The notes below the pieces were generated by a model. That model was not told the origin of the DNA. It was given only the letters and a program-made list of their open reading frames with translations, and did not search any database. A stretch of 64,000 bases of DNA from Alphaproteobacteria bacterium (GTDB lineage Bacteria; Pseudomonadota; Alphaproteobacteria; JBBDQX01), in the NCBI GenBank assembly GCA_965601735.1, contig OZ271840.1, forward strand, positions 1,192,523 through 1,256,522. Direction: 5' to 3'. Within the stretch, counting starts at the first letter, position 1. Every line of letters starts with the position of its first letter. A program made the position numbers and the translations under genes. Below are positions 1,688 through 24,697 of this stretch, piece by piece.

Positions 1688-1689
1688 CG

Positions 1690-4618: not shown

Positions 4619-4725
4619 ACCCGCGCCCGCCTGACCCGCGACCGGAACCGCGCGCCGGGGAAAAACCTGTCGAAACGCCCCGGACGCTGGTCTAAGCTTT
4701 TCAGTCAAATACGGGGGGTTTGACG

Positions 4726-6087
4726 ATGCTTGCACGCTTTCGGGTGTCTCATCGTAGGGTTCGGGCTGCGCTCTACGCGCTGGCCATGGCGGGCGCTTTC
4801 GGCGCCGCGCACACCGCCGCCGCCGATACGCCGGTGCCGCTGGTGGACAAGGAAATCCACATGGGGATCGCGACCTGCGCCGGCAGCACCTGCCACGGCG
4901 CGGTGCAGGCCTGGCAAGGGGTCCAGGTCCTGCAGAACGAATTCATCACCTGGCAGCGCAAGGACCAGCACGCCAAGGCCTACCAGGTGCTGCTCAACGA
5001 GCGCTCCAAGCGGATCGCCAAGAATCTCGGGCTGGAGGCAGCCCACACCGCGAAGGTGTGCCTCGACTGCCATGCCGACAACGTGCCCCAGGAACGCCGC
5101 CACCGGACCTTCCAGATCTCTGACGGGGTGACCTGCGAAGCCTGCCATGGCGGGGCCGGGCGCTGGATCGGCACCCATATCGCCGCCGACGCGACGCACC
5201 AGAAGAACATCGCCAACGGGCTGTATCCGACCGCCAACCCGAAGGACCGGGCAAAGCTGTGCCTATCCTGCCACTTCGGTGACGAGAACCGGTTCGTCAA
5301 TCACCGCATCATGGGCGCGGGCCATCCGCGCATGAGCTTCGAGCTCGACACCTTCACCGCGCTGCAGCCGGCCCACTACCGGGTCGACGCGGACTACCGC
5401 AAGCGCAAGGGCAGCTGGAACGGCGTGCAGACCTGGGCCATCGGCCAGGCGATGGCGCTGCAGATGCAGCTCGACGCCATCCTCGACCCGAAGAACGGCA
5501 TGGACGGCATCTTCCCCGAACTGGTGAACTTCGACTGCCATTCCTGCCACCGCAGCCTCAACGCCCAGCGCTGGGAGGCGCGCGAGTCCGTCGGCCTTGG
5601 CCCGGGCATTCCGCGGCTCAATGACTCCAGCATGCTGATGCTGACCGTGATCGCGCGGCATGTTGACGACGCCCTGGGCCAGACGCTCGCAGCGCGCATC
5701 CGCGCCCTGCACGGCGCAGTGCGCCAGGGGCATGACGCGATGCTGCGCGAGGCCCGTGCGCTCAAGGCAGTCAGCGACACCCTGGTCGACCGATTCTCCG
5801 CGCGCCAGTTCGGCAAGGCCGATATGCAGGCGCTGCTCGTCGGGGTGATCGATTTCGGCCTTGCCGGGAATTTCACCGACTACAGCGGCGGCGAGCAGGC
5901 GACCATGGCGCTGGCCACCATCATCAACGCCATGCAGGACACCGGCGCCATCGACAAGGCGCGCGCCGATGCGCTCAGCAAGGTGCTGGAAAAGGCCTAC
6001 GCCGCGACAGCCAGCGACGAGAAGTACACCGGCGCCGGCTACGCGGCGGCGCTACGCGAGATCAAGGCCGCCATCCCGCAGCTCTAG
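4726..6087 (+). CDS. Exported multiheme c-type cytochrome (c554-like; 4 CxxCH + 1 CX4CH)
   Basis: Signal peptide ending ..HTAAA; motifs CAGSTCH, CLDCH, CEACH, CLSCH, CHSCH; helical C-terminal domain. Confidence 0.85.
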   Translation: MLARFRVSHRRVRAALYALAMAGAFGAAHTAAADTPVPLVDKEIHMGIATCAGSTCHGAVQAWQGVQVLQNEFITWQRKDQHAKAYQVLLNERSKRIAKNLGLEAAHTAKVCLDCHADNVPQERRHRTFQISDGVTCEACHGGAGRWIGTHIAADATHQKNIANGLYPTANPKDRAKLCLSCHFGDENRFVNHRIMGAGHPRMSFELDTFTALQPAHYRVDADYRKRKGSWNGVQTWAIGQAMALQMQLDAILDPKNGMDGIFPELVNFDCHSCHRSLNAQRWEARESVGLGPGIPRLNDSSMLMLTVIARHVDDALGQTLAARIRALHGAVRQGHDAMLREARALKAVSDTLVDRFSARQFGKADMQALLVGVIDFGLAGNFTDYSGGEQATMALATIINAMQDTGAIDKARADALSKVLEKAYAATASDEKYTGAGYAAALREIKAAIPQL

Positions 6088-7803: not shown

Positions 7804-10800
7804 TTACTTCGGCAGCGCGGCGCGGCGGTCCGGCGGGGTGTCGCGGATGAAGTCCTCAAGCCGCACCGCGTCGGTGACGAACCAGGGCCGGCCGTTGCCG
7901 TCCAGATACAGCTCCTGCTGCTCCTTCAGATTGAACGGCCGCGAGCCGAGCCGCCCGAAGATGGCGATCTGGTGGCCGGTCTCGTCGACGCCCCGGTCCC
8001 GGTCGAGACCCTTGGACAGGGACAGCGCCGGGCGCATGGTCGGCTTGGTGGCGATCAGCGCGGGCTTCGGCTCCGGGCTGAAGCCGTAGAAGCGCGGCTG
8101 GGTGTCCGGCGCGGTGAGCTGCACCACACGGAGGCCATTGCGCCCATCGGCGACATAGGCGAACAGGGACGCGTTGGTCGAGGCGACGATGACGTCGCGC
8201 GCGTCGTTGATCGCGCCGTTCGCGTTGAAGGTCTCATACAGGCGCGGCTGCTCCGGGTTCTCCACATCGACGATGGCGAGGCCATCGGCGCCCGCGGCGA
8301 CATAAGCGTAGGTGCGCGCCACATAGACCCGGTTGGCCCGGGCCATCGGCACTGCCGCGCCGGCCACCACGCGGGGCTGCGCCGGCTGGGTGACGTCGAC
8401 GGTCTGCAGCCCGCCGTCGCCAACGACGAACAGGTAGCGGAACTGCACCGCGGTGGCCCGCGCGCCGGGCAGGGCGATCTGCGCCATCACCCGCGGCTGC
8501 AGCGGGTCGTCCATGTCGAGCACCACGACGCCGCGCGGGGTGGTGACGTAGAACACCGTGCCCGCGATGGTGAGGTGGCGCGCGCCATTCAGCACCCCGT
8601 CCGGGTTCCAGGTCAGCGCCCGGTCCATGAAGTTGTTGCGCGGCTCGCCGTCCTTCAGGGTCTCGTCGTTGGTCAGGATCAGACCTTCCTCGGAATCGGT
8701 GATGAAGGCGTAGCTGTAGATCGGGTGGAAGGGCTGCTCGCGGTTGGTCTCGCGCATCAGCTCGCCGGTGTTGTTCGGCGGGTAGATCGGCTGATTGGTC
8801 GGCAGCACGACGCAGGTGGCGTTCTTGCTCTCCACCGTAGTGTCGTGGCCAAGCGGCGAGAACGGCGCGGTGATGATGCGGTGCGAGATGCCCTTGTTGG
8901 CGATCGAGGCGACGTCATAGACCCGCATGCCCTCGCCACCCTGGGCGGCGTAGAGGTATTCGCCGCGGTGCTGGATGCAGCCGGTCGCCTCGCCATCCAG
9001 GTTGGCGTAGCTCTCATCCAGGATGCGGCCGCGCTGCTCATGGTCGCGGTGCCAGTCGGGATAGGCGTAACGGTGCAGGTAGCTGCCGATCACCGCCTGG
9101 GGCTCGTCATACTCGGCGACGCGGACGCCTTCGACCGCCCCGTCGAGGCCGACGAACTGGAACGGCCCGACGAAGTTCACGAAGTTGGTCCCGTGCAGCA
9201 GCAGCTGCGCCATGATCGCGTTGTTGTCGTTGTCCGCCGACAGGTGGCAGTCGGTGCAGGTCTTGGTTTCCGTCTTGCGCACGGTGTGGGCGAAGTGCGG
9301 CGCGAAGGCCTGGCTGGAATAGCCGCTGGCGGCGATCGGCGGCTGGGCGATGTAGATGCGCTCGCGGTTGATGTTCTGTGACGACAGCACCAGCGCCGAG
9401 GACGAGCGGATCGGCGCGATGGTGTTGTTCTTCACGTCGCCATGGACGCCCAGCTGGAACATCTGGTCGCGTACCACCTGCGGATTGTAGGTGGCGAAGT
9501 TGCGGGTCTCGCCGCCCTCATACTTGTGCCGCTCGGTCTTCCAGTTGGCCTGGATCGGCAGGTGGCAGCCGGCACACGATGTGGTCCAGGCGAGATGGCA
9601 GGTGAAGCACTCCATCTCCTCTTCCTTGTGCGCCCGGTCCTCGGGCAGCACGCCGGGGCCCCACTTCATGTCGATGCCGCCGCCCTCGCCGCCCTTGGCC
9701 ATCAGCTTGGCGCGCGCCGCCTTGGCGTTGTAGCCGTCATGGCCCGGCGTGACGCTATCCTTGGTGAGCGACACCTCCCACTCCAGCTCCGGGTCGAGCG
9801 CCGCGCGCTGGTAGAGCTTGCAGTCCCGGTCCTCGTCTACCGGCTTGGCGCATTCCGTACCGCGCCACTGGAAGCGGCTGCGCCCGTCCGACACCCGCAG
9901 GAGTGCCAGGTCGTTGCCGCCCGGCGGCGCGGCGGGCCCCGAGGTCAGCAGCGTCGGATGCGCGTCGTAGGTGCCATGGCAGTCGATGCAGCGGATCTCG
10001 ATCGCCGCCTGCACCTCGCCGTAGATATGGCCGTTGCCGTGGGCGTCCTGGGCGAAGTGGCAGTCAACGCAGTGCATGCCGACGTCGAGATGGATCGACG
10101 ACATGTGCACCGCCTTGTCGAACTTGTCCGGGTCGTCCGGCTCGACGATGTTGCCCTCGGCGTCGAGCAGGTTGCCCTTGCGGTCCTTCTTGAAGATCGC
10201 CCGGAAGTTCCAGCCATGGCCGTGATAGTCGGCGAACTGGGTGTTGTTGAGTTCCGGGTTCATCTCGCTGACCTGCTTGAGGAACTCCACATCGCCCCAA
10301 AGCCCGCGGATCGCCGCCTCCTCGGGATTGCGCTTGAGGATCTCGTACATCTCCGCGTGGGACGGGTAGCGCTGCTCCTCGGGCCACATCGCCGGCGCGT
10401 CCGATTCGTAGTCCCACATGGTGTAGCCCAGATAGGAGTTCACGAAGACGTTCGGCTGGTGCATGTGGCAGATCATGCACTGGCTGGTCGGGATCGCGTT
10501 GGTGAAGGTGTGGCGCAGGGGATGCCCCGACTTGTCCTTCGGGATCGTCGGGTCGGCGGTCTGCGTCTTGCCGGTATGGCCGTACTTGGCGTAGGGGCCG
10601 GAATGGCGCGGGTCGCGGTCGTTGGCGTAGACCACATGGCACGAGCCGCAGCCCGAGGTGCGGTAGTCGCCCGGCTGGTCGTTGGTGCCGAGGAACCACA
10701 GGAACGGGTCGTTCAGCCGGGTCTTGTGGATGTTGATCACCGGCACCGCGATGCGCAGGCCGGTGCCGGGGCCGCGGTTGGACTGGCGGATGTCCGGCCG

Positions 10801-11634
10801 GCCCGGTTCCTCCAGCCGCTGCAGCTGGCCCAGCGCGTTGGGCAGGCCGATCTCCGGGAACAGGTTGAGGATGTTGCGCCCGCCGCGCTCGAACACCCGG
10901 AATACGTCGGCCGGCGGGATCACCTCCCAGGCCGGCAGCGGCAGCAGGCTGGGCAGCACGCCGCGCTTCTTCATCGCCTCGGTCGGCTCCACCGGGTTGA
11001 CCAGGGTCGCCGCTTGGCCGTCGCGGGTGTAGGCCTCGCCGATGACGTAGTTCTTGAAGGGCAGGATGCCGTTGTTGTACGCCGCCCCGCCCCACAGCAT
11101 GGCGCCGGTCGACATCAGGCTGCGCTCCACCGCCTGCACCAGCGGCAGGTGGCAGGCGCCGCAGGCCTCGCGCGCGATCCGCAGGTCGCTCGGATTGACG
11201 AAGCGGATGTACTCCGGCGACTCCCTGTTGAGCAGGGTGTAGCTCTGCTTCGGGTTCGCCGCGCTTGGCCAGTGCCAGGTCTCCGGATAGCGCGGCAGCA
11301 CATGGGCGCGCAGCTTGGCCGCGGTCTCGTCCGCCGGCGGCTTGTAGAACACGCTGGCATCGCCGCCATGGCAATCGGTGCAGCCCAGCACCACGCCCGG
11401 GCTGTCATGCATGGTCGGCTCGTCGGTCTTGGTGTGGCAGCTCATGCAGCCGGCGCTCTTTGCCGCCGCCTGTTCGGGCAGCTGCGCCTTGGGCGCGGGC
11501 GGGTGCGGGGTGTAGGTGATGTCCCGCGGCGTCTCGCCGCTGGCGGCGAGGGCCGGCGTAGCGGCCGCCACCAGGGCCAGCCCGGCCAGGGCGAGCAGCA
11601 GTTGGCGCGATGTGATGCCTATGCCCATGACCAT
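7804..11634 (-). CDS. Large exported decaheme c-type cytochrome with C-terminal LVIVD-like beta-propeller
   Basis: Signal peptide (..ATPALA); 10 CxxCH (CMSCH, CTDCH, CGACH, CGSCH, CMICH, CVDCH, CIDCH, CFTCH, CAGCH, CTDCH); repeats such as YAYVAAGADGLAIVDVENPEQP and FAYVADGRNGLRVVQL. Confidence 0.88.
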   Translation of the reverse strand: MVMGIGITSRQLLLALAGLALVAAATPALAASGETPRDITYTPHPPAPKAQLPEQAAAKSAGCMSCHTKTDEPTMHDSPGVVLGCTDCHGGDASVFYKPPADETAAKLRAHVLPRYPETWHWPSAANPKQSYTLLNRESPEYIRFVNPSDLRIAREACGACHLPLVQAVERSLMSTGAMLWGGAAYNNGILPFKNYVIGEAYTRDGQAATLVNPVEPTEAMKKRGVLPSLLPLPAWEVIPPADVFRVFERGGRNILNLFPEIGLPNALGQLQRLEEPGRPDIRQSNRGPGTGLRIAVPVINIHKTRLNDPFLWFLGTNDQPGDYRTSGCGSCHVVYANDRDPRHSGPYAKYGHTGKTQTADPTIPKDKSGHPLRHTFTNAIPTSQCMICHMHQPNVFVNSYLGYTMWDYESDAPAMWPEEQRYPSHAEMYEILKRNPEEAAIRGLWGDVEFLKQVSEMNPELNNTQFADYHGHGWNFRAIFKKDRKGNLLDAEGNIVEPDDPDKFDKAVHMSSIHLDVGMHCVDCHFAQDAHGNGHIYGEVQAAIEIRCIDCHGTYDAHPTLLTSGPAAPPGGNDLALLRVSDGRSRFQWRGTECAKPVDEDRDCKLYQRAALDPELEWEVSLTKDSVTPGHDGYNAKAARAKLMAKGGEGGGIDMKWGPGVLPEDRAHKEEEMECFTCHLAWTTSCAGCHLPIQANWKTERHKYEGGETRNFATYNPQVVRDQMFQLGVHGDVKNNTIAPIRSSSALVLSSQNINRERIYIAQPPIAASGYSSQAFAPHFAHTVRKTETKTCTDCHLSADNDNNAIMAQLLLHGTNFVNFVGPFQFVGLDGAVEGVRVAEYDEPQAVIGSYLHRYAYPDWHRDHEQRGRILDESYANLDGEATGCIQHRGEYLYAAQGGEGMRVYDVASIANKGISHRIITAPFSPLGHDTTVESKNATCVVLPTNQPIYPPNNTGELMRETNREQPFHPIYSYAFITDSEEGLILTNDETLKDGEPRNNFMDRALTWNPDGVLNGARHLTIAGTVFYVTTPRGVVVLDMDDPLQPRVMAQIALPGARATAVQFRYLFVVGDGGLQTVDVTQPAQPRVVAGAAVPMARANRVYVARTYAYVAAGADGLAIVDVENPEQPRLYETFNANGAINDARDVIVASTNASLFAYVADGRNGLRVVQLTAPDTQPRFYGFSPEPKPALIATKPTMRPALSLSKGLDRDRGVDETGHQIAIFGRLGSRPFNLKEQQELYLDGNGRPWFVTDAVRLEDFIRDTPPDRRAALPK

Positions 11635-11636
11635 GC

Positions 11637-13562
11637 CTAGAAGGTGAGGATCAGGTTGCCGAGGACGGAGTAGTAGTGGTCTTGCGCCAACGCCCCGCCC
11701 GATTCGGTGGTGTAGAGGTCCTTGAAGCCCTCGCCCGCGAACAGCACCGCGCCCGAGAGGCGGAAGACGATGTTCTGGGAGAAGAACGGCCGGTAGATCA
11801 GTGCTGCCGAGACGTCGACGCCGATGTCCTCGTCGATCACACCCTGGTTGCGGATTGCCTCAATGTTGGACGTGTCGACGAAGCGCAGCTTGTTGACGTT
11901 GGTCGACAACCGCAGCTCCGGCAGGATGTCGAAGTCGGTGCCGAAGCCGTACAGCATGATCCCCGGATTGTTGAAGTTCGACTGGCCGTGTTCCTTGGTG
12001 GTCCGCAGCTCGGCCAGCACGCCGTTGCGCTGGGTCAGTGCCACGCCGCCGCCGCCGATGAAGGGGATGCCCTGGCGGATCCAGTAGCTGGTGTCGCCGC
12101 CGGCGAATTGCGGGTTCTCGAAGATCGCCGCGAAGCCCTCTTCCTTGTCGTCGAAGGGGTCGGAGTCGCCGCTGGCATAGAGGAACGAGCCGCGCAGGCG
12201 GATCCAGTCCAGGTCGACCGACGGTTCGGCGGCGAAGAAGTAGGCGCCGATTTCGGTTTCCTCGCCCGGCGGGTCGCCGGTGAGCACATTGTGCCCGTCC
12301 TGGCCCCAGGCGTAGTAGGCGGAGACCGTGAGGTTGGCGCGGTCGAAATGGCCGTCGCCGTTGAAGCCGAAATAGGTGACCTGGTAATCGCGCAGCCGCT
12401 CGTCGCCCAGCGAGGCCGGGCGCTCGATGAAGTCGTTTTCGTTGAAGAAGAAGGCGTCGTCCTCGCCGTTGCGGTTATGCACCACGGTGAACTGGGAGAC
12501 GAAGCCCAGCATCGGCATGTCCTGGATATACAGGTTGGCGACGAACACATCGTCGTCGCGCCAGGCGACGCCGACATCGTTCAGGCCGCTGTTGGTGTCC
12601 TTGTCGAGCCGGCGGAACCAGGCGAGGTTGTACTGGAAGATGTTGTTGTCGCGGCTGCCGAACAGCCGGATACCCATCTGGTTGTCCTGGAACAGGAAGC
12701 CGCGGAAGTCGGTCGAGAAGGGCTGGATGCCGATGCGGATCGAGTCGAAGTCGTAGCGGTCCGACACATTGCGGATGTGGTAGTCGAAGAAGCCTTCCTG
12801 CAGCGCGATGTGGAAGTCCTCGCGCGTCGTACCCTGTCGCGGGTCGCGCTCCAGGAAGCCGACCTCCTCGGCCTCCGCCCGGTTGAAGTTGATCACCGGG
12901 GTCAGGCGGAACTCGTAGTCCGGCGGCTTGTAGGCCGTATTGCCCTTAATCAGCGACGCGCTGAGGATGATGTTCTGGTTGTAGAAGGTCTGGGTGCCGT
13001 CGCTGAAGATGTTCGACGTGCTCGACGAGTTGGTCGAGTTGGGCGCCGTCGGCGTCGGCACCTTGCGCGGCTCGACCACCGTATCGGAGATCGCCAGCAG
13101 GTTCAGGAACCAGTCCTTGGTGCCGAGGATCGGCCGGTCGCCCTTGATGTAGTTCTGGTTATAGGGGTCCCACCAGATCGCCTCGACGCCGATGGCATCC
13201 GCGAGGCGCCAGCGGTCGGGTACGGGGATGAACTCGCGCGGCAGGTTGGGCTGCGGCGGCGGCACCGCGCCGGGGTCGATCTGCGGCGGGGCGACCCGCT
13301 CCTCGGGCAGTTGCTGGCCCGGAATGCGCCGTGCCTGGCCGATCTGCACCGGGGTGTCGACCGCCGCGGGGGCCACGGTGACCGGGGCCAGCGGACGCGG
13401 CGGCACCGGCGCGGGCACGGCGGGCGCCGGCGCGCGCACGGCGGCCGGCGCCGGGCCCAGAATCATCTCCTTGCCCGCCCATGCCGGCCCGGCCGCGGCG
13501 GCGGCAAGCGCCGCGGCGGCGGTCAACAGAACCCGGCCGGGCCTATTTATTGGCGCAGACAT
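11637..13562 (-). CDS. Putative outer-membrane beta-barrel protein
   Basis: Signal peptide (..PAWA), Pro-rich linker, many amphipathic aromatic beta-strands, C-terminal YSVLGNLILTF (BAM-type terminal Phe). Start 13562 or 13571. Confidence 0.75.
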   Translation of the reverse strand: MSAPINRPGRVLLTAAAALAAAAAGPAWAGKEMILGPAPAAVRAPAPAVPAPVPPRPLAPVTVAPAAVDTPVQIGQARRIPGQQLPEERVAPPQIDPGAVPPPQPNLPREFIPVPDRWRLADAIGVEAIWWDPYNQNYIKGDRPILGTKDWFLNLLAISDTVVEPRKVPTPTAPNSTNSSSTSNIFSDGTQTFYNQNIILSASLIKGNTAYKPPDYEFRLTPVINFNRAEAEEVGFLERDPRQGTTREDFHIALQEGFFDYHIRNVSDRYDFDSIRIGIQPFSTDFRGFLFQDNQMGIRLFGSRDNNIFQYNLAWFRRLDKDTNSGLNDVGVAWRDDDVFVANLYIQDMPMLGFVSQFTVVHNRNGEDDAFFFNENDFIERPASLGDERLRDYQVTYFGFNGDGHFDRANLTVSAYYAWGQDGHNVLTGDPPGEETEIGAYFFAAEPSVDLDWIRLRGSFLYASGDSDPFDDKEEGFAAIFENPQFAGGDTSYWIRQGIPFIGGGGVALTQRNGVLAELRTTKEHGQSNFNNPGIMLYGFGTDFDILPELRLSTNVNKLRFVDTSNIEAIRNQGVIDEDIGVDVSAALIYRPFFSQNIVFRLSGAVLFAGEGFKDLYTTESGGALAQDHYYSVLGNLILTF

Positions 13563-15522
13563 TCTGGGCATTGCTTCCGAGGAAGGGTTTGAAGGGACAG
13601 TTCACGTATCGCAGCCGCGCGCCCTGGGGCGACAGGTTGTCGGCGCGGAGGCTGGCCGGCGCGTTGCCGACACCGGTGTTGAGCGACACGCCCGCGTCAT
13701 GCAGGCCGAGGAAGGAGACCATGTCGTCCTGGTCGATGCCGTCGCCGGACACGCCGATACCGCCGATCACCGTGTTGTCGCGGTAGATCGGTACGCTGCC
13801 CGGGAAGATCTGGAAGCCGTTGGCGATCCGCGTCAGCGTGCCGCCGCCGGCGGACCGGGTGAAGAAGCTGCAGGTCGCGTCCGTGTCCGTCGGTGTGCCT
13901 GCGTTGTCGGCGTAGAGGACATGCAGCGCGATGTTGTCGAGCACCGCGTTGAGCTGCAGCCCGGTGTTGAACGGGCTCCAGGTATTGAACGGCTCGGAGA
14001 AGGGGCCGTTGGGCGCGCCGTTGATGCCGTCCGGATAGAACGGCCGAGACAGGTTGCCGCCCGAGCGGTCGGAGAACGCGATGCCGTCGGCCAGCGCATT
14101 GGGCCCGACAAAGGCGCGCACGCGGTCGAGGTAGCGCTCCAGGCGCACGCCATTGGCATTCTGCGCCGCCGGGGTGCTGGCCACGGTGGAGCTGTAGCTC
14201 TGCAGGTAGGTGGCCGCCCCGGTGCTGGAGAACAGGGCCGCGGTGCGTGCCTTCTGCAGCGACACGTCGGTGCCGAAGATCGGCGCGTCTGGCGTGCGCG
14301 CGATGCCCAGGATGTTGCCGTTGGCATCGACCACCGAGATGGTGACCTGGATATGGCTGCGGAACGGCTGGCGGATCTGAGCGCGCCCGGCAAACGCGAT
14401 CTTCAGCGCGTTGCCGATGATGGTGGTGACCTCGTTGGCGGTCATCCCGCCGCTGCCGGTGGCCGGGGTGGTGCTGGCGGTCGGTGGGTAGCGGTTGGTG
14501 CCGCCGGCGTTGTAGAGCACGAACACCGGCTTGCCGACGAAGTCGTACGTGCCCGCCGTGTCCTCGGCGAAGCCCGAGGCGGTGGTGCCGTAAGCCTGGC
14601 CGGCCAGCGGCGAGGCGGCGGCCGTGTAATAGCCCTGCACCGTGGTCAGGTTGCCGAGTGTGCCGTTGACCGCGGCGAAGCTGGCGTTGCCCGGGCTGCT
14701 GCGCAGTTGCGAGCTTTCCGCATCGGTGTAGCGGAAGGTCTTGCCCTCGAGGAAGATGCGGTTGCCGCGGATGTTGGTCGGCGGCGTAAACAGGAACTGC
14801 CCGGCGATGGCGATTAGTTCATCCGGGTCCTCGTCGAAGTTGCTGATCGACAGGTCCAGCGTGTAGTCGCCGTCGGATTCAACGCCGATGCCGCCGACGA
14901 CCTGGCCGTTCTTGTAGAGCGGCATGCCGCCCGGGTCCGCCGACAGGCCGAGCGGCGAGCGCTTCGGCCCGATGGTGCTGTTGACCAGGCCGGTCACCGT
15001 GGCGTTGGTCGCAAACCGGACCGACAGGTCTGAACAGGGCAGCTGGCTGAACTGCACCCCGAACAGCGGGCCGGAGGGCGCGAAGGACTCACCCGGGTTG
15101 AAGTGCTCCTGGACGATCTGGCTCGCGGTCCGTGTGGTGAATGCGTTGCCGCTGGACGACAGGTAGGCGCCGGTGACCGCCTTGGTGATCGCCGACAGCC
15201 GTCCCGAGGGCGAGGCGGTGGCGCCGAGCGAGTTGAAGGTGTCCTGCACCTGTTCCAGCCCGTTGGTGCGCGGAATGCCGCGCCGGGTGGTGACCTCGAC
15301 GCGCGACGGCGCGCCGGTCATCGAGAACACGCCCAGCACGTTGCCGACCCGGTCGACCACGGCGATATGGGCGGGCTGGTTGCGCGCGTTGGCCTCGTTG
15401 GCCGCCGCCGCGATGATCTGCCCGACTTCCGCGGACGTCAGGCTTTGGGCCCGCGCCGGGCTGGCCGCCAGGCACAGAGCCAGCGCGGCGGAGGCGAGCA
15501 GCGCGGTGCGGGCGGTCGCCAT
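13543..15522 (-). CDS. Exported heme-binding protein with two GlcG/HbpS-like (DUF336) domains
   Basis: Signal peptide (..PARA); duplicated motifs IAVVDRVGN...GGMPLYKNGQVVGGIGV and ISVVDANGN...KARTA...GSVPIYRDNTVIGGIGVSGDG..QDD. Confidence 0.8.
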   Translation of the reverse strand: MATARTALLASAALALCLAASPARAQSLTSAEVGQIIAAAANEANARNQPAHIAVVDRVGNVLGVFSMTGAPSRVEVTTRRGIPRTNGLEQVQDTFNSLGATASPSGRLSAITKAVTGAYLSSSGNAFTTRTASQIVQEHFNPGESFAPSGPLFGVQFSQLPCSDLSVRFATNATVTGLVNSTIGPKRSPLGLSADPGGMPLYKNGQVVGGIGVESDGDYTLDLSISNFDEDPDELIAIAGQFLFTPPTNIRGNRIFLEGKTFRYTDAESSQLRSSPGNASFAAVNGTLGNLTTVQGYYTAAASPLAGQAYGTTASGFAEDTAGTYDFVGKPVFVLYNAGGTNRYPPTASTTPATGSGGMTANEVTTIIGNALKIAFAGRAQIRQPFRSHIQVTISVVDANGNILGIARTPDAPIFGTDVSLQKARTAALFSSTGAATYLQSYSSTVASTPAAQNANGVRLERYLDRVRAFVGPNALADGIAFSDRSGGNLSRPFYPDGINGAPNGPFSEPFNTWSPFNTGLQLNAVLDNIALHVLYADNAGTPTDTDATCSFFTRSAGGGTLTRIANGFQIFPGSVPIYRDNTVIGGIGVSGDGIDQDDMVSFLGLHDAGVSLNTGVGNAPASLRADNLSPQGARLRYVNCPFKPFLGSNAQNVCANK

Positions 15523-15524
15523 GG

Positions 15525-15971
15525 CTATTGCCCCGCCGGCTGCGGCAGCAGCCCGAACAGGCCGTATTTCAGCACCCCGCCGGCGCGGTAACCCACCGCC
15601 AGCGTGATGCCGTGGTTATCGGCGGCGATGTCTTCATTCAGCAGCTTGAACTCGAGCTGCCCTTCCGAGGCGGCGAAGCCGTTGTCGGCGAGGGTCTCCA
15701 GGTTGCCGTCCCACGGCACCCAGTAACCGTCGCGGGTGCGCTGCCGCCGCTCGGCGCCGCCGAGAATGGCCCAGACATGGGTCGACTCCGGGCTGTCGCC
15801 GCCGAGCGCCACGGTCAGCCGCAGATCGCCGACCTGCCCGTCGGTTGTGAGCGTGCCGAGGGATGCGCCGGTCTCGCTCAGGCTGTGCGGCCCGCCGGTG
15901 TCCGCCGCGTGCACGCCGGGGGTGCAGAGCGCCAGCGCGGCGGCCAGGGCCAGGGCGCGCGGCGTTCTCAT
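15525..15971 (-). CDS. Small secreted hypothetical protein
   Basis: Signal peptide (..GVHA); 4-nt overlap with the upstream gene and 2-nt gap to the downstream gene; predicted beta-rich. Confidence 0.7.
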   Translation of the reverse strand: MRTPRALALAAALALCTPGVHAADTGGPHSLSETGASLGTLTTDGQVGDLRLTVALGGDSPESTHVWAILGGAERRQRTRDGYWVPWDGNLETLADNGFAASEGQLEFKLLNEDIAADNHGITLAVGYRAGGVLKYGLFGLLPQPAGQ

Positions 15972-17743
15972 CGCACCCCGCCCGCGTCCAGCGCGGCGCG
16001 TTTTTCAGGCGCCGGGGTCATCGCCGGCAGGCCCTCGAAGTGGAAGTTGTGGCACTGGATGCAGCCGGTCGGCACCCGGTCGGCGGCCTGCTCGCCGCCA
16101 TGGCACTGCTGGCACAAGCCAATCTGCGGCAGCAGCACGTCGGTCGCCTGTTTCGACGTCTCCGCCTTGTGGCAGGCTGAGCATTCCATGTTGTCGTGGC
16201 TGCCATGGTGGAACAGCCCCTTGGGCAGCCACCGGTCAGTGACCAGCACCGGCTTGATGTCCCAGCTGATGGTGTCGGCCGTGACGGTCTGGGACATCTC
16301 ATGGCAGACGCCGCAGACCGAGCGCGAGGCGTAGAGGGCCGCCTTGTCCGCCTGCTCCTCGGCCCAGGCCAGCGCGCCGAGCCTCTCCTGCTCGGTCAGT
16401 TGGGTGCCAGGGCGGCGGCGCACCACCGCGGGGGCGTCCGGCGTGGTGACCCCGCCGCGCAGCGCCAGGTCGGAGTAGAACTCCTGCACCGTCAGCAGCG
16501 CCGCTTCCAGGTCGCCATGGGGCAGGGTGCGGTCCGGCGCCGCCGGCTCGAAGCGCAGCAGATGGCATTCGGCGCAATGCTGCTCCATGTCGATGGGCCG
16601 CAGGCCGGCGCCGCCGGGTTCAACCGCGTGGCAGTCGGTGCATTGCAGTTCGGTGAAGCCGGGCTTGCCCGGTACCCGCAGCCCGCCGGGCTTCATGTGG
16701 GCCGCGTGGGTGAAGCGCAGGTTGGAGTTTTCTTCCGGCCAGGCGGCCTGGTCCAGGGTGATGCGCTGGCGGGTGCCGGCTGCCGCGTCGACCACCACGG
16801 AGGGACGGAACTGCGGATGGTCGTATCCGAAGTCTGCGGCGTTGAGCAGCTTGGTCTCCGGTGCCTGTTCGTCCAGCGCGCTGTGGCAATCGGCGCAAAA
16901 CGCCTGGTCGCTGCGGATGATGGCCTCGGGCCCGCGATGCTCCTTGTGGCAGCTCTGGCAGGCAACGCCGGCGACCTCGTGCAGGCTATCCATGGCCGCG
17001 AAGCGCACCGGGTCGACGTGATGGGGCAGCCCCTCGTGACAGACCGCGCAGGCGCGGTCGGGTACCTGCTCGAAGGCGTTGAGGTGGCAGGCGCCGCAGT
17101 CGTCGGCGATGAACTTGTGCGGCCCCGAAACCTCGCCGCTGTCCCAGGCCAGGTCGGCCTTGATCGGCCACGTCGCCTCGGGGGCAGGCATCTCCTGCAT
17201 CGGCACATCGGCGCGCGGGCCGTCGGCGCGCTCGATGAAATAGCCCACCACCGGCCAGACCAGGAACAGCGCCAGTACGGTTAGCGCCAGCGCCCAGGAC
17301 GTCCCCCGCCGGCCCCAGCCCGCGTCAGCGAGGCTGGTGCGGCTGCGGGCCTGCAGCAGCGCCAGGGAATCGTCGGGCGGACGGACCATCTCCACCGAGA
17401 CCGCGACCTCGGCTGCCTGCGACCCCTCGGCGTTGTCCTCCGCTGCGGGGTCGAGGACGACAACCTCGTAGGGCCCGACCTGGATGACGCTGCCCGGGCG
17501 CACCGGGCCGGAGTTCGCGACCCGGCCGTCGATCATCGCGTTGGCCTGCGGGGCGGCCTCGTAGAACAGGCCGTTGGCGCGCATGTGCAGGGCGCCCTCA
17601 TGCAGCAGCACCCGGGAGTCGAGCAGCTCGACCTCGTTGTCGGTGCTGCGGCCGAAGCGTACCTGTTCGCAGGTCAGCCGCTCGTCATGGCTGACCACTG
17701 CGCCGCTCCGCCGTCGGGTGAGATGCTTGACCAGAACGTCCAA
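15968..17743 (-). CDS. FHA-like domain + TM helix + periplasmic decaheme (cytochrome c3-like) protein
   Basis: N-terminal VRFGRSTDNEVEL (FHA-like); TM WALALTVLALFLVWPVV; 10 CxxCH (CGACH, CAVCH, CQSCH, CADCH, CTDCH, CAECH, CGVCH, CSACH, CQQCH, CIQCH). TTG start. Confidence 0.85.
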   Translation of the reverse strand: MDVLVKHLTRRRSGAVVSHDERLTCEQVRFGRSTDNEVELLDSRVLLHEGALHMRANGLFYEAAPQANAMIDGRVANSGPVRPGSVIQVGPYEVVVLDPAAEDNAEGSQAAEVAVSVEMVRPPDDSLALLQARSRTSLADAGWGRRGTSWALALTVLALFLVWPVVGYFIERADGPRADVPMQEMPAPEATWPIKADLAWDSGEVSGPHKFIADDCGACHLNAFEQVPDRACAVCHEGLPHHVDPVRFAAMDSLHEVAGVACQSCHKEHRGPEAIIRSDQAFCADCHSALDEQAPETKLLNAADFGYDHPQFRPSVVVDAAAGTRQRITLDQAAWPEENSNLRFTHAAHMKPGGLRVPGKPGFTELQCTDCHAVEPGGAGLRPIDMEQHCAECHLLRFEPAAPDRTLPHGDLEAALLTVQEFYSDLALRGGVTTPDAPAVVRRRPGTQLTEQERLGALAWAEEQADKAALYASRSVCGVCHEMSQTVTADTISWDIKPVLVTDRWLPKGLFHHGSHDNMECSACHKAETSKQATDVLLPQIGLCQQCHGGEQAADRVPTGCIQCHNFHFEGLPAMTPAPEKRAALDAGGVR

Positions 17744-17752
17744 CGCCGCCCC

Positions 17753-18583
17753 CTACCAGTAGAAGAAGACAGCGATGATGTGCGCCACCAGCGCCGCCAG
17801 CAGGGCGCAGGTCAGCGGCACGTGGAACAGCAGCCAGACGTCGAACAGCGCCTTGTACTGCACGTCGCGGCGGGCGCGCTGCAGCAACTGCACCCGCTTG
17901 GCCAGCAGGGTGATGAGCTGCCGCGCGGCTTCCGCCTGGGAGCCGGAAAACTCCTCGCCCATGGCGCGGATACCCTCCAGTGCGCGCGTCGTCGGGCAGT
18001 TTGGGTCACGTCCCGAGAGCTGGCGCACCAGCCCGCCGCCGATGCGCGTGTTCTCCTCGGCGTCGGCGAGCAGCGCAGTCACCTTGTCCGGCAGCGTCAG
18101 CGCCACGTCGTTGCATTCGCGGCGCAGCTCGGCGATCTGCCCCATCATCTGCTCAAGCGTCAGCCCGGCACGGTTCTCAGCACGCAGCGCCGGCAGGCGC
18201 ATATAGAAGTAGATGCCGAAGATACCGGTCAGCACCACCGCGACCATCAGCCCGTAGGCCAGGGTGTGAACGTTCAGCCCGAACTCGAAGCCGGTGTGCA
18301 GCGTGGCGATCACGATCAGGCCGAGGCCGAGATAGACATGGGCCGAGGCCCAGTCCTCCAGCATCAGCGCGCCGACGCCGTAGCGCCGCTTGCGGATGCC
18401 GAACCATGACAGCCAGACGATCAGCAGCGCCCCGATGGTCCCCAGCGTGTAACCCAGCCAGGTGCCGCCGTTGGGGCTGTTGAACGGATCGTGCAGCACA
18501 TAGGCGACGATTGCGGCAGCGACCAGCAACAGGGTCAGCTTGAGGTAGCGGAAGTTGCGGTAGACGAGGATCGATTGATGCAT
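17753..18583 (-). CDS. Integral membrane protein, putative di-heme b (ferric reductase TM-like)
   Basis: About 5-6 hydrophobic segments; His pairs in TM helices: WASAHVYLG...ATLHTG and WLLFHVPL...LVAHII. Confidence 0.7.
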   Translation of the reverse strand: MHQSILVYRNFRYLKLTLLLVAAAIVAYVLHDPFNSPNGGTWLGYTLGTIGALLIVWLSWFGIRKRRYGVGALMLEDWASAHVYLGLGLIVIATLHTGFEFGLNVHTLAYGLMVAVVLTGIFGIYFYMRLPALRAENRAGLTLEQMMGQIAELRRECNDVALTLPDKVTALLADAEENTRIGGGLVRQLSGRDPNCPTTRALEGIRAMGEEFSGSQAEAARQLITLLAKRVQLLQRARRDVQYKALFDVWLLFHVPLTCALLAALVAHIIAVFFYW

Positions 18584-18602: not shown

Positions 18603-20996
18603 TCAGCGCGCCAGCTGCGAGATGGAGAAGAACTCTTCCGGGCTGACCCGGATCGCCGCGCCGGTCGGGCAGGCGCGCACGCAGGCAGGGCCCCCGTCCA
18701 GGTCCTTGCACATGTCGCACTTCACGGCCTTCTTCGGCGACTCGGAGTCCGTCTTCTCGGCCCGCTTCGTCTTGTCCTCGCCGGGACCGTCGCCCAGCCC
18801 GAACAGCATCCAGCTCAGCAGCCCCGGCTTGTCGGGCTTTTCAGTCGCCATGTGGATGACGTCATAGGGGCAGTTGCGTTCGCAGTTGCCGCAGCCGATG
18901 CAGCTCTCGTCGATGAACACCTCGCCGTCGGGGGCGCGGTGGATCGCGTCCGGCGGGCAGTCGGCCATGCAATGGGGATGCTCGCAATGCCGGCAGGACG
19001 TCGGCACATGGATGGTGGCGTAGGTTGGCCCCGCCTCGCGGTCGAGCCGCGACGTGCCGCCGTGGGTCTCGGCGCAGGCCTTCTCGCAGTTGTCGCAGGC
19101 GATGCAGAGCGACTCGTCGATCAGCAGCATGTCGGTGGCTTCGCCGATGCCCTGCTCGACCAGGAACTGGATGATGTTGCCGGCCTCGGGCTGCGCCTCC
19201 ATGGCCTCGGATTCCACCAGCCGGGTCAGCAGCCGGTCCTCGACCTCGCGGCGCAGCGCCGGATCGACCTGCATCAGCCCCTGGAACACGCTGCCTTCGA
19301 GCCAGATCGTCTCGCACGCCACGGCGGCCCGCACGGTGCCGTTGCGCGGCGCGTTGTTGAGCAGCCCCATCTCGCCGACATAGTGGCCCGCCGGCACGTA
19401 GGCGATGACCACCTCCTGGCCGCCGATCTCGCGCGAGACGGTGACCGAGCCGCGCTGGATGAGGTAGACGCCGTCGGCCTCGTCGCCCTCGCTGAACAGC
19501 AGCTCGTCCTTCTTGAAGCGGCGGATCTCGGCGGTCTCGACCACCGGGCTCAGGGTATCGGCGCTGAGGTTGGGCGACAGGTAGGTAAGCAGCTGGCGCA
19601 CGATCGCCGCCTGGCTCAGGGTCTTCTCCACCGAGGCGACCGAGTTGATGGTCTTGATCATCGTGCGCCGCGGCGATTCCAGCAGGATGGAATGTTCCGC
19701 CGCCAGCACCGTGGCCGAGCGCCGCCGCCCCTGCAGCAGGCCCATCTCGCCAAAGAAGTTGCCGCGCCCGAGGCCGACCCGCTGGGTGTCGTCGTCCGGG
19801 TCGATGAGGATCTCGACCCCACCCTCGACGATCATGAAGAAGGAGTTGGTGTAGTCGTTGCGCTCGAACACCGTGTCCCCGGGCTTGGGGAAGTGGAAGC
19901 TGCTGTCGATGAGGAACTCGCGCAGCTGCAGGGTGGTCAGGCCGCTCAGCAGCGGCACGCTGGTGCGGATATGCTCCAGCAGCTCGTCGACCGTGTGCTG
20001 CTCCAGCAGCGGCCCGAACTTCTCTTCCAGCAGCGGCTCGTCGGCGGGCTTCACCTCATTGCCGAGGATGAACTCAACCACCTCGTAGCCCTGGTTCATC
20101 GCCTGTTTGATCAGCGGATAGCCGCCAAGCGCGCCGATGATGTAGAGGCCGGGGACGTTGGATTCGTAATTGGCGCTGAGCTCCGGCAGGGCCGCGGGGT
20201 CCTTGCTCGGGAACTCAATGCCGCAGGCCTCGACGAAGCGCCGCGGCGGGATCGCGCCAAGCCGCGCGATCACCCGGTCGCATTCGACGACCGCCTCGCC
20301 GTCGGGCACCGACAGCACCATGGCGCCGGGCTGCACACGGGCCGGGTTGGCGTTGTAGTAGCACTCGATAGCGCCGCTCTCGATCGCCGCCTCGATCAGC
20401 GCCCGGTTGCCGTCCTTGGCGCGGGCGAATTCATCGCGCCGGTTGACGATGGCGACCCGGTTCTGGTGGGCCAGGCCGATGGCATTCTCGATCGCCGCGT
20501 CGCCCGCGCCGATGACGACGATGCGCTCGTCCTCATAGGCGTCAGGATCGTCGAGCTGATACTGGATACGGTCCCAGTCCGCGCCCTCGCAGTCGAGCTT
20601 GCGCAGGTTGCCTTGCAGGCCGATGGCGAGGATCACCGTCTCGGCGATGATGGTCTCGCTGCGGTTGATGGTGATCTCGAAGCCGCCGCGCTCGCCGCCA
20701 ATCGCGGTGACCTCGGCGTTGAAGCGGACATTGACGCCGGCTTTCTCGGTCTCGTCGTCCCAGGCGCCCAGGATCGCCTCGCGCTTACCGGCCTCGAAAG
20801 ACATGGTCGAGCGCAGCGGCAGCACGTCCGGCGTCGCCATGACGTGCTTGCCCTTCTGGTACTTGTAGATGGTGTCGGAGAGGTGGTCGGTGCGTTCGAG
20901 CAGGATGTGCGAAACGCCGTGCTCAGCCGCACGGCCGGCGGCACTCATGCCACCCGGTCCGGATCCGACGATCGCGATCCGATACGTCTCCGTCAT
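18603..20996 (-). CDS. FAD/NAD(P)H oxidoreductase fused to two cNMP-binding domains and a 4x[4Fe-4S] (DmsB-like) domain
   Basis: IVGSGPGG and VIGAGDAAIE Rossmann motifs, SNVPGLYIIG; FGEMGLL...RSATV and VGEMGLL...RNGTV; CIACDNCEKAC, CRHCEHPHCMADCP, CIGCGNCERNCP, KCDMC...PACVRACP. Confidence 0.9.
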   Translation of the reverse strand: MTETYRIAIVGSGPGGMSAAGRAAEHGVSHILLERTDHLSDTIYKYQKGKHVMATPDVLPLRSTMSFEAGKREAILGAWDDETEKAGVNVRFNAEVTAIGGERGGFEITINRSETIIAETVILAIGLQGNLRKLDCEGADWDRIQYQLDDPDAYEDERIVVIGAGDAAIENAIGLAHQNRVAIVNRRDEFARAKDGNRALIEAAIESGAIECYYNANPARVQPGAMVLSVPDGEAVVECDRVIARLGAIPPRRFVEACGIEFPSKDPAALPELSANYESNVPGLYIIGALGGYPLIKQAMNQGYEVVEFILGNEVKPADEPLLEEKFGPLLEQHTVDELLEHIRTSVPLLSGLTTLQLREFLIDSSFHFPKPGDTVFERNDYTNSFFMIVEGGVEILIDPDDDTQRVGLGRGNFFGEMGLLQGRRRSATVLAAEHSILLESPRRTMIKTINSVASVEKTLSQAAIVRQLLTYLSPNLSADTLSPVVETAEIRRFKKDELLFSEGDEADGVYLIQRGSVTVSREIGGQEVVIAYVPAGHYVGEMGLLNNAPRNGTVRAAVACETIWLEGSVFQGLMQVDPALRREVEDRLLTRLVESEAMEAQPEAGNIIQFLVEQGIGEATDMLLIDESLCIACDNCEKACAETHGGTSRLDREAGPTYATIHVPTSCRHCEHPHCMADCPPDAIHRAPDGEVFIDESCIGCGNCERNCPYDVIHMATEKPDKPGLLSWMLFGLGDGPGEDKTKRAEKTDSESPKKAVKCDMCKDLDGGPACVRACPTGAAIRVSPEEFFSISQLAR

Positions 20997-21162
20997 CCAC
21001 AATTCGGCGCGTGCGGACCCATTGCCCCCGGCCGCCGCGCCGTCCCCCATCTCTTATCGCTACAAGGCTAGGAGCCGGGCAGAACCGAGGCAAGCCATAA
21101 AGGCGCTTGACCAAGGGCTTGCGGCCTGTTTGGGCGGCCGTCCCGCGATCTTGCAGCGCCGC

Positions 21163-21897
21163 CTAGAGCGCCGCGCGGGCGACCGACATGCCGCCGTCCA
21201 CATAGATCACCTGGCCGGTGACGAAGGCGGCGTCGTCTGACAGCAGCCAGCCGCACAGGGACGCCACCTCGCGTGGGGTGCCCATGCGGCCCATCGGCAC
21301 ATCGCCCTTGCGGTCGTCGCGCAGCAGCTTGGCCGGCGCGTCGGCATCAAGCAGCAGGTCTGTGCGGATCGGCCCCGGCGCGATGCAGTTCACGGTAATG
21401 CCGTCGCCTGCCGTCTCCAGCGCCCAGGAACGGGTGAAGCCGGCGAGCCCCGCCTTGGTCGCCCCGTAGGCACCCCGCCCGGCGCGCCCCAGCGAGGCCC
21501 GGCTGCCGATATTGACGATGCGCCCGCGCCCGCGCGTCCGCATCCCCGGCAGGCAGGCGCGCGCGCAGATCAGCGCGGCGGCGAGGTTGACCGCCACCAT
21601 GGCGTCGAGATCATCAAGCGGCCCGTCGCCCGGCGCATCCAGCGGCGCCTGGCGGTCGAGTCCGGCATTGTTGACGAGGTGGTCGACAGGCCCGTCAGCG
21701 AGGATGTCCGCCAGCGCCGCCTCGGCGGCCGCCCGGTCGGCCAGGTCGACCGCCACATGACGGCCCCGGAAGGCTGCGTCCGGTGCGGTGCGGGACAGGC
21801 CGATGACGTCATGGCCCGCCTCCAACAGCCATTCGGCGATGGCGCGGCCGATGCCCCGGCTGGCCCCGGTGACGATGCTGAGCGGCGGGGCGCTCAC
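21163..21897 (-). CDS. Short-chain dehydrogenase/reductase
   Basis: TGASRGIG, NNAG, YGATK, NCIAPG, VDGG. Confidence 0.93.
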   Translation of the reverse strand: MSAPPLSIVTGASRGIGRAIAEWLLEAGHDVIGLSRTAPDAAFRGRHVAVDLADRAAAEAALADILADGPVDHLVNNAGLDRQAPLDAPGDGPLDDLDAMVAVNLAAALICARACLPGMRTRGRGRIVNIGSRASLGRAGRGAYGATKAGLAGFTRSWALETAGDGITVNCIAPGPIRTDLLLDADAPAKLLRDDRKGDVPMGRMGTPREVASLCGWLLSDDAAFVTGQVIYVDGGMSVARAAL

Positions 21898-23932: not shown

Positions 23933-24544
23933 ATGTATCAACATCTGAAGCGAAGAAGAGGTCGCCCCCTTGGGTCTGGAATTGATGACTCGGTTTATCT
24001 GAACCAGATTGCAGACCTTAAGTTTGAGAACCCTAAGTTGAGTACGTCATCGGCGGCAAAGCGTGTTCGCAAAAGGGCAGGCTCTACCCTGCAGCATGTG
24101 ACTGAGCCTACCTTTGTCAGGCGTATGCAAAGGAAATGGAACGAGAGTGAGAGCCAGTTGCTAGTTGCCGCAGAGAAACGCCGCGCTGAAGCACTCAATG
24201 CAGAATCACGGATTGACGCCACGCTTAACATGTCTTCCTTGGTCGGCTGGCTACCTGAAGGGTTGCCTGCAGCAACCATCGCAAGGTGTGTGCAGATGGC
24301 ACTTTCGATTGCAGAACGAAACGCAATAAATGAAGCGATAGGGCTGGACGCTCAAACCATGAAGACGATGTCCGCAATGACCCCCTACTCAGCATATTCT
24401 CTCAATCACCGTTGTTCTCCTCTTCATCCTCCTGATAGTTCGGTGCTTGAGGAAGCGATCAGGCTCCACGAGTCTGGTTTTCAAGATGAGGCGAGTGAGC
24501 TTGCTGAACTTTATCGTGATTCGTTGCTCCGGGGATGGAGATAG
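23933..24544 (+). CDS. AT-rich hypothetical protein with basic RGRP (AT-hook-like) N-terminus
   Basis: About 203-aa ORF with AT-rich codons and an upstream GGAG; KRRRGRPLGSGIDD N-terminus. Confidence 0.6.
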   Translation: MYQHLKRRRGRPLGSGIDDSVYLNQIADLKFENPKLSTSSAAKRVRKRAGSTLQHVTEPTFVRRMQRKWNESESQLLVAAEKRRAEALNAESRIDATLNMSSLVGWLPEGLPAATIARCVQMALSIAERNAINEAIGLDAQTMKTMSAMTPYSAYSLNHRCSPLHPPDSSVLEEAIRLHESGFQDEASELAELYRDSLLRGWR

Positions 24545-24599
24545 AGACGGAGATCAGCCAGCCCGTGCATCTCGACCGTAATGCAAGAGTGCCCGGCGG

Positions 24600-24692: not shown

Positions 24693-24697
24693 CGGGC

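Follow-up and report, generated by a model that had tools for sequence, protein, structure and literature searches.

What does a cytoplasmic protein that joins a flavoprotein, two cyclic nucleotide-binding (CNB) domains and a four-cluster ferredoxin do, and where do its electrons go? The question is raised by gene A, which lies in a 64,000-nucleotide stretch of an alphaproteobacterial genome (NCBI GenBank assembly GCA_965601735.1, contig OZ271840.1, positions 1,192,523 to 1,256,522 of the forward strand). We call this whole stretch the window and count positions from its first nucleotide. A first-pass annotation had proposed that the CNB domains could form a rare switch on electron flow between flavin and Fe-S wire. 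Our reading, to which we give a probability of about one half, is that A is an NAD(P)H-driven, quinone-independent electron-input module of a cytochrome conduit that spans the envelope, and that its inserted CNB tandem is a regulator. Its role as a redox input module is highly probable, and its working together with the products of the next two genes, B and C, is probable. The acceptor of the Fe-S wire, on which the annotation was silent, is very probably the membrane and multihaem system encoded directly downstream of A.

The methionine at 20996 (MTETY...), chosen as the start in the annotation, agrees with the conserved N-terminus of the homologue consensus and gives a protein of 797 residues, somewhat shorter than the longest open reading frame (ORF). 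Gene A and its parts are as follows.

18603..21050, minus strand: ORF of gene A, 815 aa from the longest frame
18603..20996, minus strand: gene A, 797 aa, four modules (flavoprotein, CNB-A, CNB-B, four-cluster ferredoxin)
19992..20996, minus strand: A residues 1-335, two-Rossmann FAD/NAD(P)H module with the fold of thioredoxin reductase (TrxR), YpdA and TrxR-type ferredoxin-NADP+ reductase (FNR), without CxxC (Pfam, Foldseek, motifs)
19587..19964, minus strand: A residues ~345-470, CNB-A, cassette G416-E417...R426-S-A-T (Pfam, PDB sequence search)
19197..19574, minus strand: A residues ~475-600, CNB-B, cassette G541-E542...R551-N-G-T (Pfam, PDB sequence search, model)
18606..19139, minus strand: A residues 620-797, HycB/HydN/NrfC/DmsB-like domain, 16 invariant Cys in four cluster motifs (Pfam, NCBIfam, PDB)

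Matches in Pfam and in a sequence search of the PDB confirmed the four-module architecture that had been read from the translation. The ORF is not a chance one, because full-length homologues fill the 120 listed matches (all 772-826 aa, 60-73% identity, 94-100% coverage). The protein has neither a transmembrane-like window nor a signal peptide and is predicted to be cytoplasmic. An AlphaFold2 model built from our own alignment had a mean pLDDT of 85.4 and a pTM of 0.77. Among its Foldseek matches no solved chain covered the four modules together (TMq ≤ 0.35), the flavoprotein module alone being matched, and all NCBIfam models scored below their cut-offs on A. Conservation counts for A given below refer to an alignment of 35 full-length relatives of 30-74% identity.

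The N-terminal module matched Pyr_redox_2 (residues 5-303, E 3.8e-26) and Pyr_redox_3 (residues 9-288, E 2e-28), both above the Pfam cut-offs. Its closest solved relative was Bdr/YpdA (7a7b), which aligned to residues 8-291 in the PDB sequence search (E 1.2e-16) and was the best Foldseek match to the flavin module of the model (TMt 0.78), followed by TrxR-type FNRs from Bacillus, Chlorobaculum, Rhodopseudomonas and Thermus. The FAD motif (G11, G13, P14, G16) and the second dinucleotide motif, for NAD(P)H (G165, D166, E170), are invariant in 35/35. The NRR reported behind the second Rossmann strand is indeed there, as N185-R186-R187, and together with R192 it forms a putative 2'-phosphate site. 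The NADPH preference drawn from it in the annotation is suggested by these residues in A but is not uniform in the family, where R186 is kept in 31/35, R192 in 26/35 and R187 in only 11/35.

Could A then be a thioredoxin- or bacillithiol-type disulfide reductase under cyclic-nucleotide regulation? YpdA/Bdr and TrxR are, after all, the top NCBIfam and fold matches of this module. Their scores nonetheless lie far under the family cut-offs, at 125.9 against 339.9 for YpdA/Bdr (TIGR04018, the top NCBIfam model) and 58.8 against 343.45 for thioredoxin-disulfide reductase (TIGR01292). The absence of a CxxC disulfide, already remarked on in the annotation, held for residues 1-330 of A and for 35/35 aligned relatives. 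The YpdA/Bdr enzymes have their conserved active Cys within the FAD motif, and the corresponding positions 9-16 were Cys-free in the 35 sequences. As there is no conserved Cys column anywhere in the module, and one relative lacks Cys there entirely, disulfide-reductase chemistry is excluded for A. The sequences effectively refute this alternative, and we leave it next to no chance.

At the other end of the protein, several Fer4 dicluster models of Pfam covered residues 662-780, and the four-cluster subunit HycB of formate hydrogenlyase (7z0s_B) aligned to residues 624-790 (E 5e-17). The cluster motifs (C631/634/637/641, C668/671/676/680, C699/702/705/709 and C760/763/772/776) comprise 16 Cys, all invariant in 35/35, so the DmsB/NrfC-like arrangement of four clusters seen in the annotation stands, as a domain of HycB/NrfC type. 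The equivalog models of such subunits scored well below cut-off on A (HydN 53.6 against 260, DmsB 54.4 against 214.1, NCBIfam), and the operon contains none of the catalytic partners typical of the HycB, HydN, NrfC and DmsB enzymes.

How do the flavin and Fe-S modules relate to the CNB domains between them? The best evidence comes from a CNB-free variant, P0283 (552 aa), in which a flavoprotein 52% identical to A residues 5-325 is followed, across a joint of ~16 residues, by a ferredoxin 50% identical to residues 620-793. This variant suggests that the flavin and Fe-S modules interact directly and that the CNB block of 294 residues is accessory, inserted between them. The placing of the CNB domains between flavin and Fe-S modules, on which the earlier switch proposal was built, holds in this form, as what looks like an insert between cooperating redox modules, and the tandem is likely to be a regulatory one. 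When DNA context for P0283 was sought in 34 genome and 60 metagenome contig loci, only weak ferredoxin-only matches were obtained (≤38% identity, ≤~135 residues). Other cluster representatives lack the flavoprotein (CNB-CNB-ferredoxin; P0366, P0374, P0375, P0386) or the ferredoxin (flavoprotein-CNB-CNB; P0290, P0294, P0325, P0334), and one has a single CNB domain (P0341).

What takes up the electrons of the Fe-S wire? A leads a compact operon of seven genes on the minus strand, with successive gaps of 19, 9, -4, 2, -29 and 2 bp. The genes that follow it are listed below.

17753..18583, minus strand: gene B, 276-aa membrane protein, five helices with invariant His, ~110-residue cytoplasmic helical insert
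15968..17743, minus strand: gene C, 591 aa, YscD-type FHA-like N-terminus, transmembrane helix 152-170, periplasmic part with 10 CxxCH motifs
15525..15971, minus strand: gene D, 148-aa secreted protein of no known family, kept in 8/16 related loci
13543..15522, minus strand: gene E, 659-aa secreted protein, three HbpS/GlcG-like stretches, kept in 10/16 related loci
11637..13571, minus strand: gene F, 644 aa, signal-like N-terminus, C-terminal Phe, no Pfam or NCBIfam family
7804..11634, minus strand: gene G, 1276 aa, signal peptide, 10 CxxCH motifs, C-terminal LVIVD-repeat (propeller) region

Five His residues of B are invariant in 36/36 aligned sequences: H82 and H96 on helix 3, H106, and H254 and H268 on helix 5. 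The members of the pairs H82/H96 and H254/H268 are each 14 residues apart on their two helices, and this pattern, with His ~14 apart on each of two helices, is the one classically associated with a transmembrane stack of two bis-His haems b. The pairs of B would fit two such haems, H82/H254 near the cytoplasm and H96/H268 near the periplasm; the K+R counts of the loops place the long insert and the H82/H254 ends on the cytoplasmic side. Relatives of B number in the thousands and are named 'hypothetical protein'. Four of the 120 listed carry a precomputed PF01292, and neighbours of B in the Atlas are auto-named 'Ferric reductase like transmembrane component' at 0.98, which we take as a lead only.

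The remaining products would lie further out. The N-terminus of C had a single match, Yop-YscD_cpl (E 3.4e-4, 21.3 bits against a cut-off of 33.2), and fell below the cut-offs for FHA (PF00498). In the variant P0258 (1134 aa) two FHA domains are fused N-terminally to a complete flavoprotein-CNB-CNB-ferredoxin protein; this echoes the FHA-like domain of C and hints that an FHA-type module may act directly on A. The PDB sequence search gave only weak matches of E to GlcG, EfgA and PduO-C, and none for G. F is probably an outer-membrane barrel; its Atlas neighbours are auto-named 'Alginate export domain-containing protein', again a lead only.

From these parts we envisage the following course. 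The FAD of the TrxR-type, ferredoxin-NADP-reductase-like module, which has no disulfide centre, would be reduced by NAD(P)H, and the electrons would run along the four [4Fe-4S] clusters of the C-terminal HycB-like domain, cross the membrane over the two putative haems b of B (H82/H254, then H96/H268) and reach the anchored decahaem cytochrome C. They could then pass by way of the periplasmic D and E, the likely barrel F and the decahaem-propeller protein G to a periplasmic or external acceptor. A and B together would be a split, Fe-S-wired analogue of an NADPH oxidase or ferric reductase that bypasses the quinone pool. A ligand bound at the cassettes, most likely a cyclic nucleotide, might move the B and C helices, reposition the ferredoxin domain and so switch the current; repositioning is proposed because the ferredoxin domain directly continues the helices of CNB-B. 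In this scheme the domain identities, the invariant ligand residues, the operon and its conserved synteny are observed, and the cofactors, the direction of flow, the A-B contact and the gating are inferred.

Several observations weigh against this reading, and they concern the partnership of A with B, the direction of flow and the gating. With respect to the first, gene order is largely conserved. B follows A in 24 of 26 related loci (14/16 at class level and 10/10 in a sample of the phylum), and A, B and C are adjacent and co-directional in 13 of the 16 class-level loci; the short flanks of the 10 phylum-sample loci show the N-terminal part of C in 7. Of the genes further on, counted in the same 16 loci as D (8) and E (10), F is present in 10 (and as a fragment in one more) and G in 11. 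The other three class-level loci comprise one in which the contig ends inside B (L041), one with two fragments of A (L040) and one with A alone (L033, genome G299). The last of these is the counter-example. G299 is 98% complete and keeps a full-length A (64% identity). The neighbours there are unrelated (genes for an amidohydrolase, an aminotransferase and Sel1-repeat proteins, and a fragment of an integrase gene), and a search of that genome for B with this query found none, so A may work, or persist, without B. The fragments in L040 (genome G155; residues 7-78 and 673-793) lie between short-chain dehydrogenase/reductase (SDR) genes, and as G155 belongs to the same family as G299, that family appears to be losing the system.

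The orphan in G299 speaks for A as a self-contained soluble NAD(P)H reductase of a cytoplasmic metal chelate, flavin or small acceptor, with its place next to B and C due to co-regulation, and so does the existence of the ferredoxin-free forms. We nevertheless consider this improbable. The A-B order is kept almost throughout, with gaps of only 9-19 bp from A to C in the window, and wires of four clusters are characteristic of subunits that dock to partners in the membrane, the best matches being HycB, HydN, NrfC, DmsB and DsrO. A predicted complex of A residues 340-797 with B also points to contact: it scored 0.37 (runs of 0.41, 0.37 and 0.36; best of three controls 0.00), with at least 85% of contacts shared among the runs and a partner pLDDT of at least 75. 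The mark for this score was passed by 116 of 157 solved complexes and by 2 of 215 mismatched pairs, but passes at ≤0.60 include only 18 of the solved complexes together with both passing mismatches, and the calibration is only a rough guide for A and B, for which our own alignments were used. This is just a weak pass, and it lends the predicted A-B contact weak support.

For B itself, no Pfam family reached its cut-off (the sole match, Ni_hydr_CYTB, had 18.5 bits against 30.1 and covered the last helix), the transmembrane part was poorly modelled (pLDDT ~50-67), and Foldseek returned no match in the PDB at E ≤ 0.001. A wide alignment of B (VIA) gave generic helical bundles only, at Z < 10, which is under the stated noise level for helical models. 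On the side of A, the argument for an insert has the caveat that P0283 is a single cluster representative.

The chain might also run inwards. Electrons from a donor in the periplasm or outside the cell would then travel by way of G, C and B to the clusters and the FAD of A and reduce NAD(P)+. TrxR-type FNRs, the second-best fold matches of the flavin module, run from ferredoxin to NADP+ in some organisms, and porin-cytochrome systems are described as serving both reduction and oxidation (10.1101/2023.11.21.568154). Passage from haems c and b to [4Fe-4S] clusters and on to NADP+ is, however, energetically uphill, and B, with 276 residues and no known ion-coupling family, gives no sign of energy input. 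We therefore think inward flow has little chance of being right, and keep to A as the input of an outward chain.

Does a cyclic nucleotide control that input? Both CNB domains were recognised by Pfam (PF00027, cNMP_binding, two stretches; E 1.4e-36, 124.7 bits against a cut-off of 27.5), and the tandem CNB of PKG and PKA-R aligned to residues 347-597 (E 1.4e-24). The two phosphate-binding cassettes noted in the annotation were recovered, that of CNB-A in canonical form and that of CNB-B, R-N-G-T, as a partial match to R-[ST]-A-[ST]. In the AlphaFold2 model CNB-B is connected to the ferredoxin domain by its C-helix (579-600) and a further helix, 603-614, that carries on from it. The genome encodes seven class III cyclases, one of which is membrane-anchored and lies inside the window, 11 kb upstream of A on the same strand (32056-33924, minus strand). 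Gating of A by a cyclic nucleotide is plausible, if somewhat short of probable, given the canonical CNB-A cassette, the helix from CNB-B to the ferredoxin, the insert-like tandem, the seven cyclases and the analogy with PKA-R, PKG and CRP. The spacing from the CNB-B cassette to the first cluster Cys (91 residues in 19/35, range 84-99) was not decisive either way.

The same redox role could, on the other hand, go with a tandem that is no cyclic-nucleotide switch at all, being a structural or dimerising spacer or a binder of some other small molecule, with flow constitutive or controlled by other means. The cassettes are not strictly kept: R426 and R551 are each retained in only 24/35, T429 in 18/35 and E542 in only 22/35, and the R-N-G-T of CNB-B departs from the usual form. 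A cyclase as a conserved operon companion was rejected, as just 1 of the 21 related loci searched had one near A (L037, 11558-12088, directly upstream of A on the same strand), together with one weak match. The orphan A of G299 weakens the gating idea as well. Several CNB domains of CRP/FNR-type proteins and kinase regulators are known to bind other small molecules, and our literature search found no experimental work on a cyclic nucleotide-regulated oxidoreductase like A for any member of the family. The CNB domains of a PKA are reported to bind nucleosides rather than cAMP (PMC10959531). Against this, the cassette of CNB-A is canonical and close to a published subfamily consensus (see below), with G416 in 35/35 and E417 and L420 each in 34/35; G541 of CNB-B is kept in 32/35; the nearest solved relatives, PKG and PKA-R, are true cyclic nucleotide-binding tandems; and the genome has its seven cyclases. 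We judge a non-switch tandem unlikely and retain the regulatory insert.

The FHA-like domain of C might be a second control point. A search of the genome, which is 98.98% complete, for Hanks kinases (PF00069) had no match, a further point on the debit side; since the domain also scores below the FHA cut-offs, it probably serves in protein-protein contact and not in the reading of phospho-threonine. The fullest version of the model would make A, B and C a quinone-independent 'electron valve' that exports NAD(P)H reducing power to a decahaem/porin-cytochrome conduit under millisecond cyclic-nucleotide control, with a second input through this domain. We put that forward only tentatively, as rather unlikely in its entirety.

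Beyond the operon lies a further cytochrome gene that may belong to the system.

4720..6087, plus strand: gene H, 455-aa cytochrome c554-like protein, 4 CxxCH motifs, possibly associated

Homologues of H (46-53% identity) stand beside A, B and C in two relatives, L036 (9164-10606) and L038 (317-1714), both without D to G, which suggests that H is an alternative or additional periplasmic partner. In L038 a pentahaem gene (648 aa, 5 CxxCH, 1772-3715, plus strand) and the tetrahaem gene take the place of D to G. The whole genome has six ORFs with at least three CxxCH motifs. The window holds three of them, and another (815 aa, 12 CxxCH, genome C1:1177075-1179519, plus strand) lies 13 kb before its start, so that four of the six fall within ~33 kb.

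Other neighbours are recorded here for completeness. Between H and the end of the operon is a transporter of the MFS_3 'transmembrane secretion effector' family (E 3.2e-193; 6190-7800, plus strand), and there are genes for secretion or pili within a few kb of the cytochrome genes (464-3411, minus strand: T2SSF at 464-2014 and a T2SSE ATPase with MshEN at 1690-3411). On the other side, an SDR gene (21163-21897, minus strand) lies 167 bp upstream of A and is not conserved there in relatives. Beyond it is a gamma-glutamyltranspeptidase gene (22002-23744, plus strand), which is conserved next to A in a genome of the same genus (L041, 68% identity). The G+C content falls to 0.567 at 24001-26000, compared with ~0.67-0.75 elsewhere, and this DNA is possibly acquired; it holds ORFs for a PagL-like lipid A deacylase (24698-25429, minus strand) and an AbiU2/HEPN protein (25422-26126, plus strand), and a family-less ORF of 204 aa.

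The fusion had been described as rare, and this did not hold up: A belongs to a large, database-annotated family whose sequence class has been in print since 2007. A search of a 90%-identity collection gave 7256 matches among 8000 scored candidates. Those listed are named only 'cyclic nucleotide-binding domain-containing protein' or carry JGI composite names (CRP-like, thioredoxin reductase, Fe-S hydrogenase component), and the records include some from Zavarzinia sp., Nisaea acidiphila and Oceanibacterium hippocampi. Among 1.84 billion 50%-identity representatives, 930 proteins matched at E ≤ 1e-30, and 45 of the best 150 had all four modules as judged by BLASTP coverage, many of the others being fragments. 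In even samples of genomes, A occurred in 17 of 300 others of the same class (16 full-length, one remnant) and in 12 of 400 others of the phylum, five of these outside the class. The family is common in marine metagenomes. The host genome (3.27 Mb, a single contig) has one copy of A.

Why would such a system matter? To our knowledge, extracellular and periplasmic electron-transfer chains are fed from the quinone pool and controlled mainly at transcription. A direct route from NAD(P)H to cytochromes with a built-in ligand switch would, if real, give the cell another means of discarding or steering reducing power, and an 'electron valve' of the kind sketched above would be the first second-messenger-gated input to respiratory or extracellular electron transfer. 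Through the partnership of A with B and the multihaem proteins, what looked like an odd fusion becomes a model, open to test, of a quinone-independent and ligand-gated input to electron export. Because A is a soluble protein, rich in cofactors and simple to assay, the proposal can be tested directly, and the natural variants with no CNB domain, with one, or with the modules split can serve as controls.

How does A compare with known systems? Its flavin module has its nearest counterparts in the TrxR-type FNRs (3lzw, 3ab1, 5ygq) and Bdr/YpdA (7a7b), which likewise have a two-Rossmann fold without the CxxC of TrxR and carry electrons between a pyridine nucleotide and a partner of one-electron or thiol type. 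These are single-module proteins of ~18-21% identity to A with free partners, whereas A has its Fe-S partner fused and a CNB tandem inserted. The ferredoxin domain shares four Cys motifs, and a roughly linear [4Fe-4S] wire, with HycB, HydN, NrfC, DmsB, PsrB and the N-terminal domain of AegA, but unlike the four-cluster subunits A has neither a molybdo- or hydrogenase partner nor a Tat signal. AegA also fuses its four-cluster domain to a pyridine-nucleotide flavoprotein (its model NF009408 matches A residues 625-787, below cut-off); the order of the modules in A is reversed, with the CNB tandem between them.

For the membrane step, NADPH oxidase/FRD and MsrQ-type dihaem proteins take electrons from cytoplasmic NAD(P)H through a flavin and two bis-His haems b to an outside acceptor. 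The His pairs of B, 14 apart on two helices, would follow the same logic. The differences are that the dehydrogenase, A, is a separate TrxR-fold protein with an Fe-S wire and that B reaches no Pfam cut-off. The regulatory part has the cassette and the B/C-helix layout of CRP and of the tandem CNB of PKA-R and PKG, which are the best solved relatives of residues 347-597, with a redox output domain in place of a kinase or DNA-binding one. Two candidates were set aside, the Tenderiales 'uet' cluster with an LVIVD protein, which is a different system, and a CNB gene in an MSR-1 transcriptome paper, which is unrelated or unverifiable.

A flavoprotein fused to tandem CNB domains was catalogued by Kannan et al. 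(2007, Genome Biol 8:R264) as the CNB subfamily 'Bact_Pyrredox'. A fits it, with its N-terminal Pyr_redox domain and a tandem CNB bearing the subfamily cassette: the consensus GEMGLISGRRRGATVRA and the CNB-A stretch GEMGLLQGRRRSATVLA are alike at 13 of 17 positions, counted by eye. As tabulated there, Bact_Pyrredox is a sequence class, and the tabulated description includes no characterised enzyme, ferredoxin domain, function or gene context.

The gene order has a closer parallel in the ptdABCDEFG cluster of marine Alphaproteobacteria and other phyla, for which a 2024 preprint (bioRxiv 10.1101/2023.11.21.568154), the only source of the name 'ptd' in our literature search, proposes a porin-cytochrome role. 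Compared by description, PtdE-PtdF-PtdG (a CNB Fe-S protein, a ferric-reductase-like transmembrane protein and a periplasmic decahaem cytochrome) resemble A-B-C. The rest differs: the preprint also lists PtdA (pentahaem), PtdB (a porin), PtdC (a FAD/NAD(P) oxidoreductase encoded separately) and PtdD (tetrahaem), and the window's operon has D, E, F and G instead. None of the six multihaem ORFs of the genome has exactly five CxxCH motifs, the operon has no separate FNR-type gene as a counterpart of PtdC, and F (as a possible barrel) and H (with four CxxCH) are the only candidate counterparts of ptd genes as these are described. PtdE is credited there with two clusters, whereas the 16 invariant Cys of A would make four. 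The penta-, tetra- and decahaem set beside A-B-C in L038 is the combination described for ptd. The family is widespread, yet in this discussion, the sole one in print that we found, its function is called 'completely unknown'. As judged by these comparisons, A is a new member of a catalogued, uncharacterised family, set in a variant of a recently named gene cluster. What is added here is that A has conserved partners, a putative dihaem membrane protein and a multihaem/porin system.

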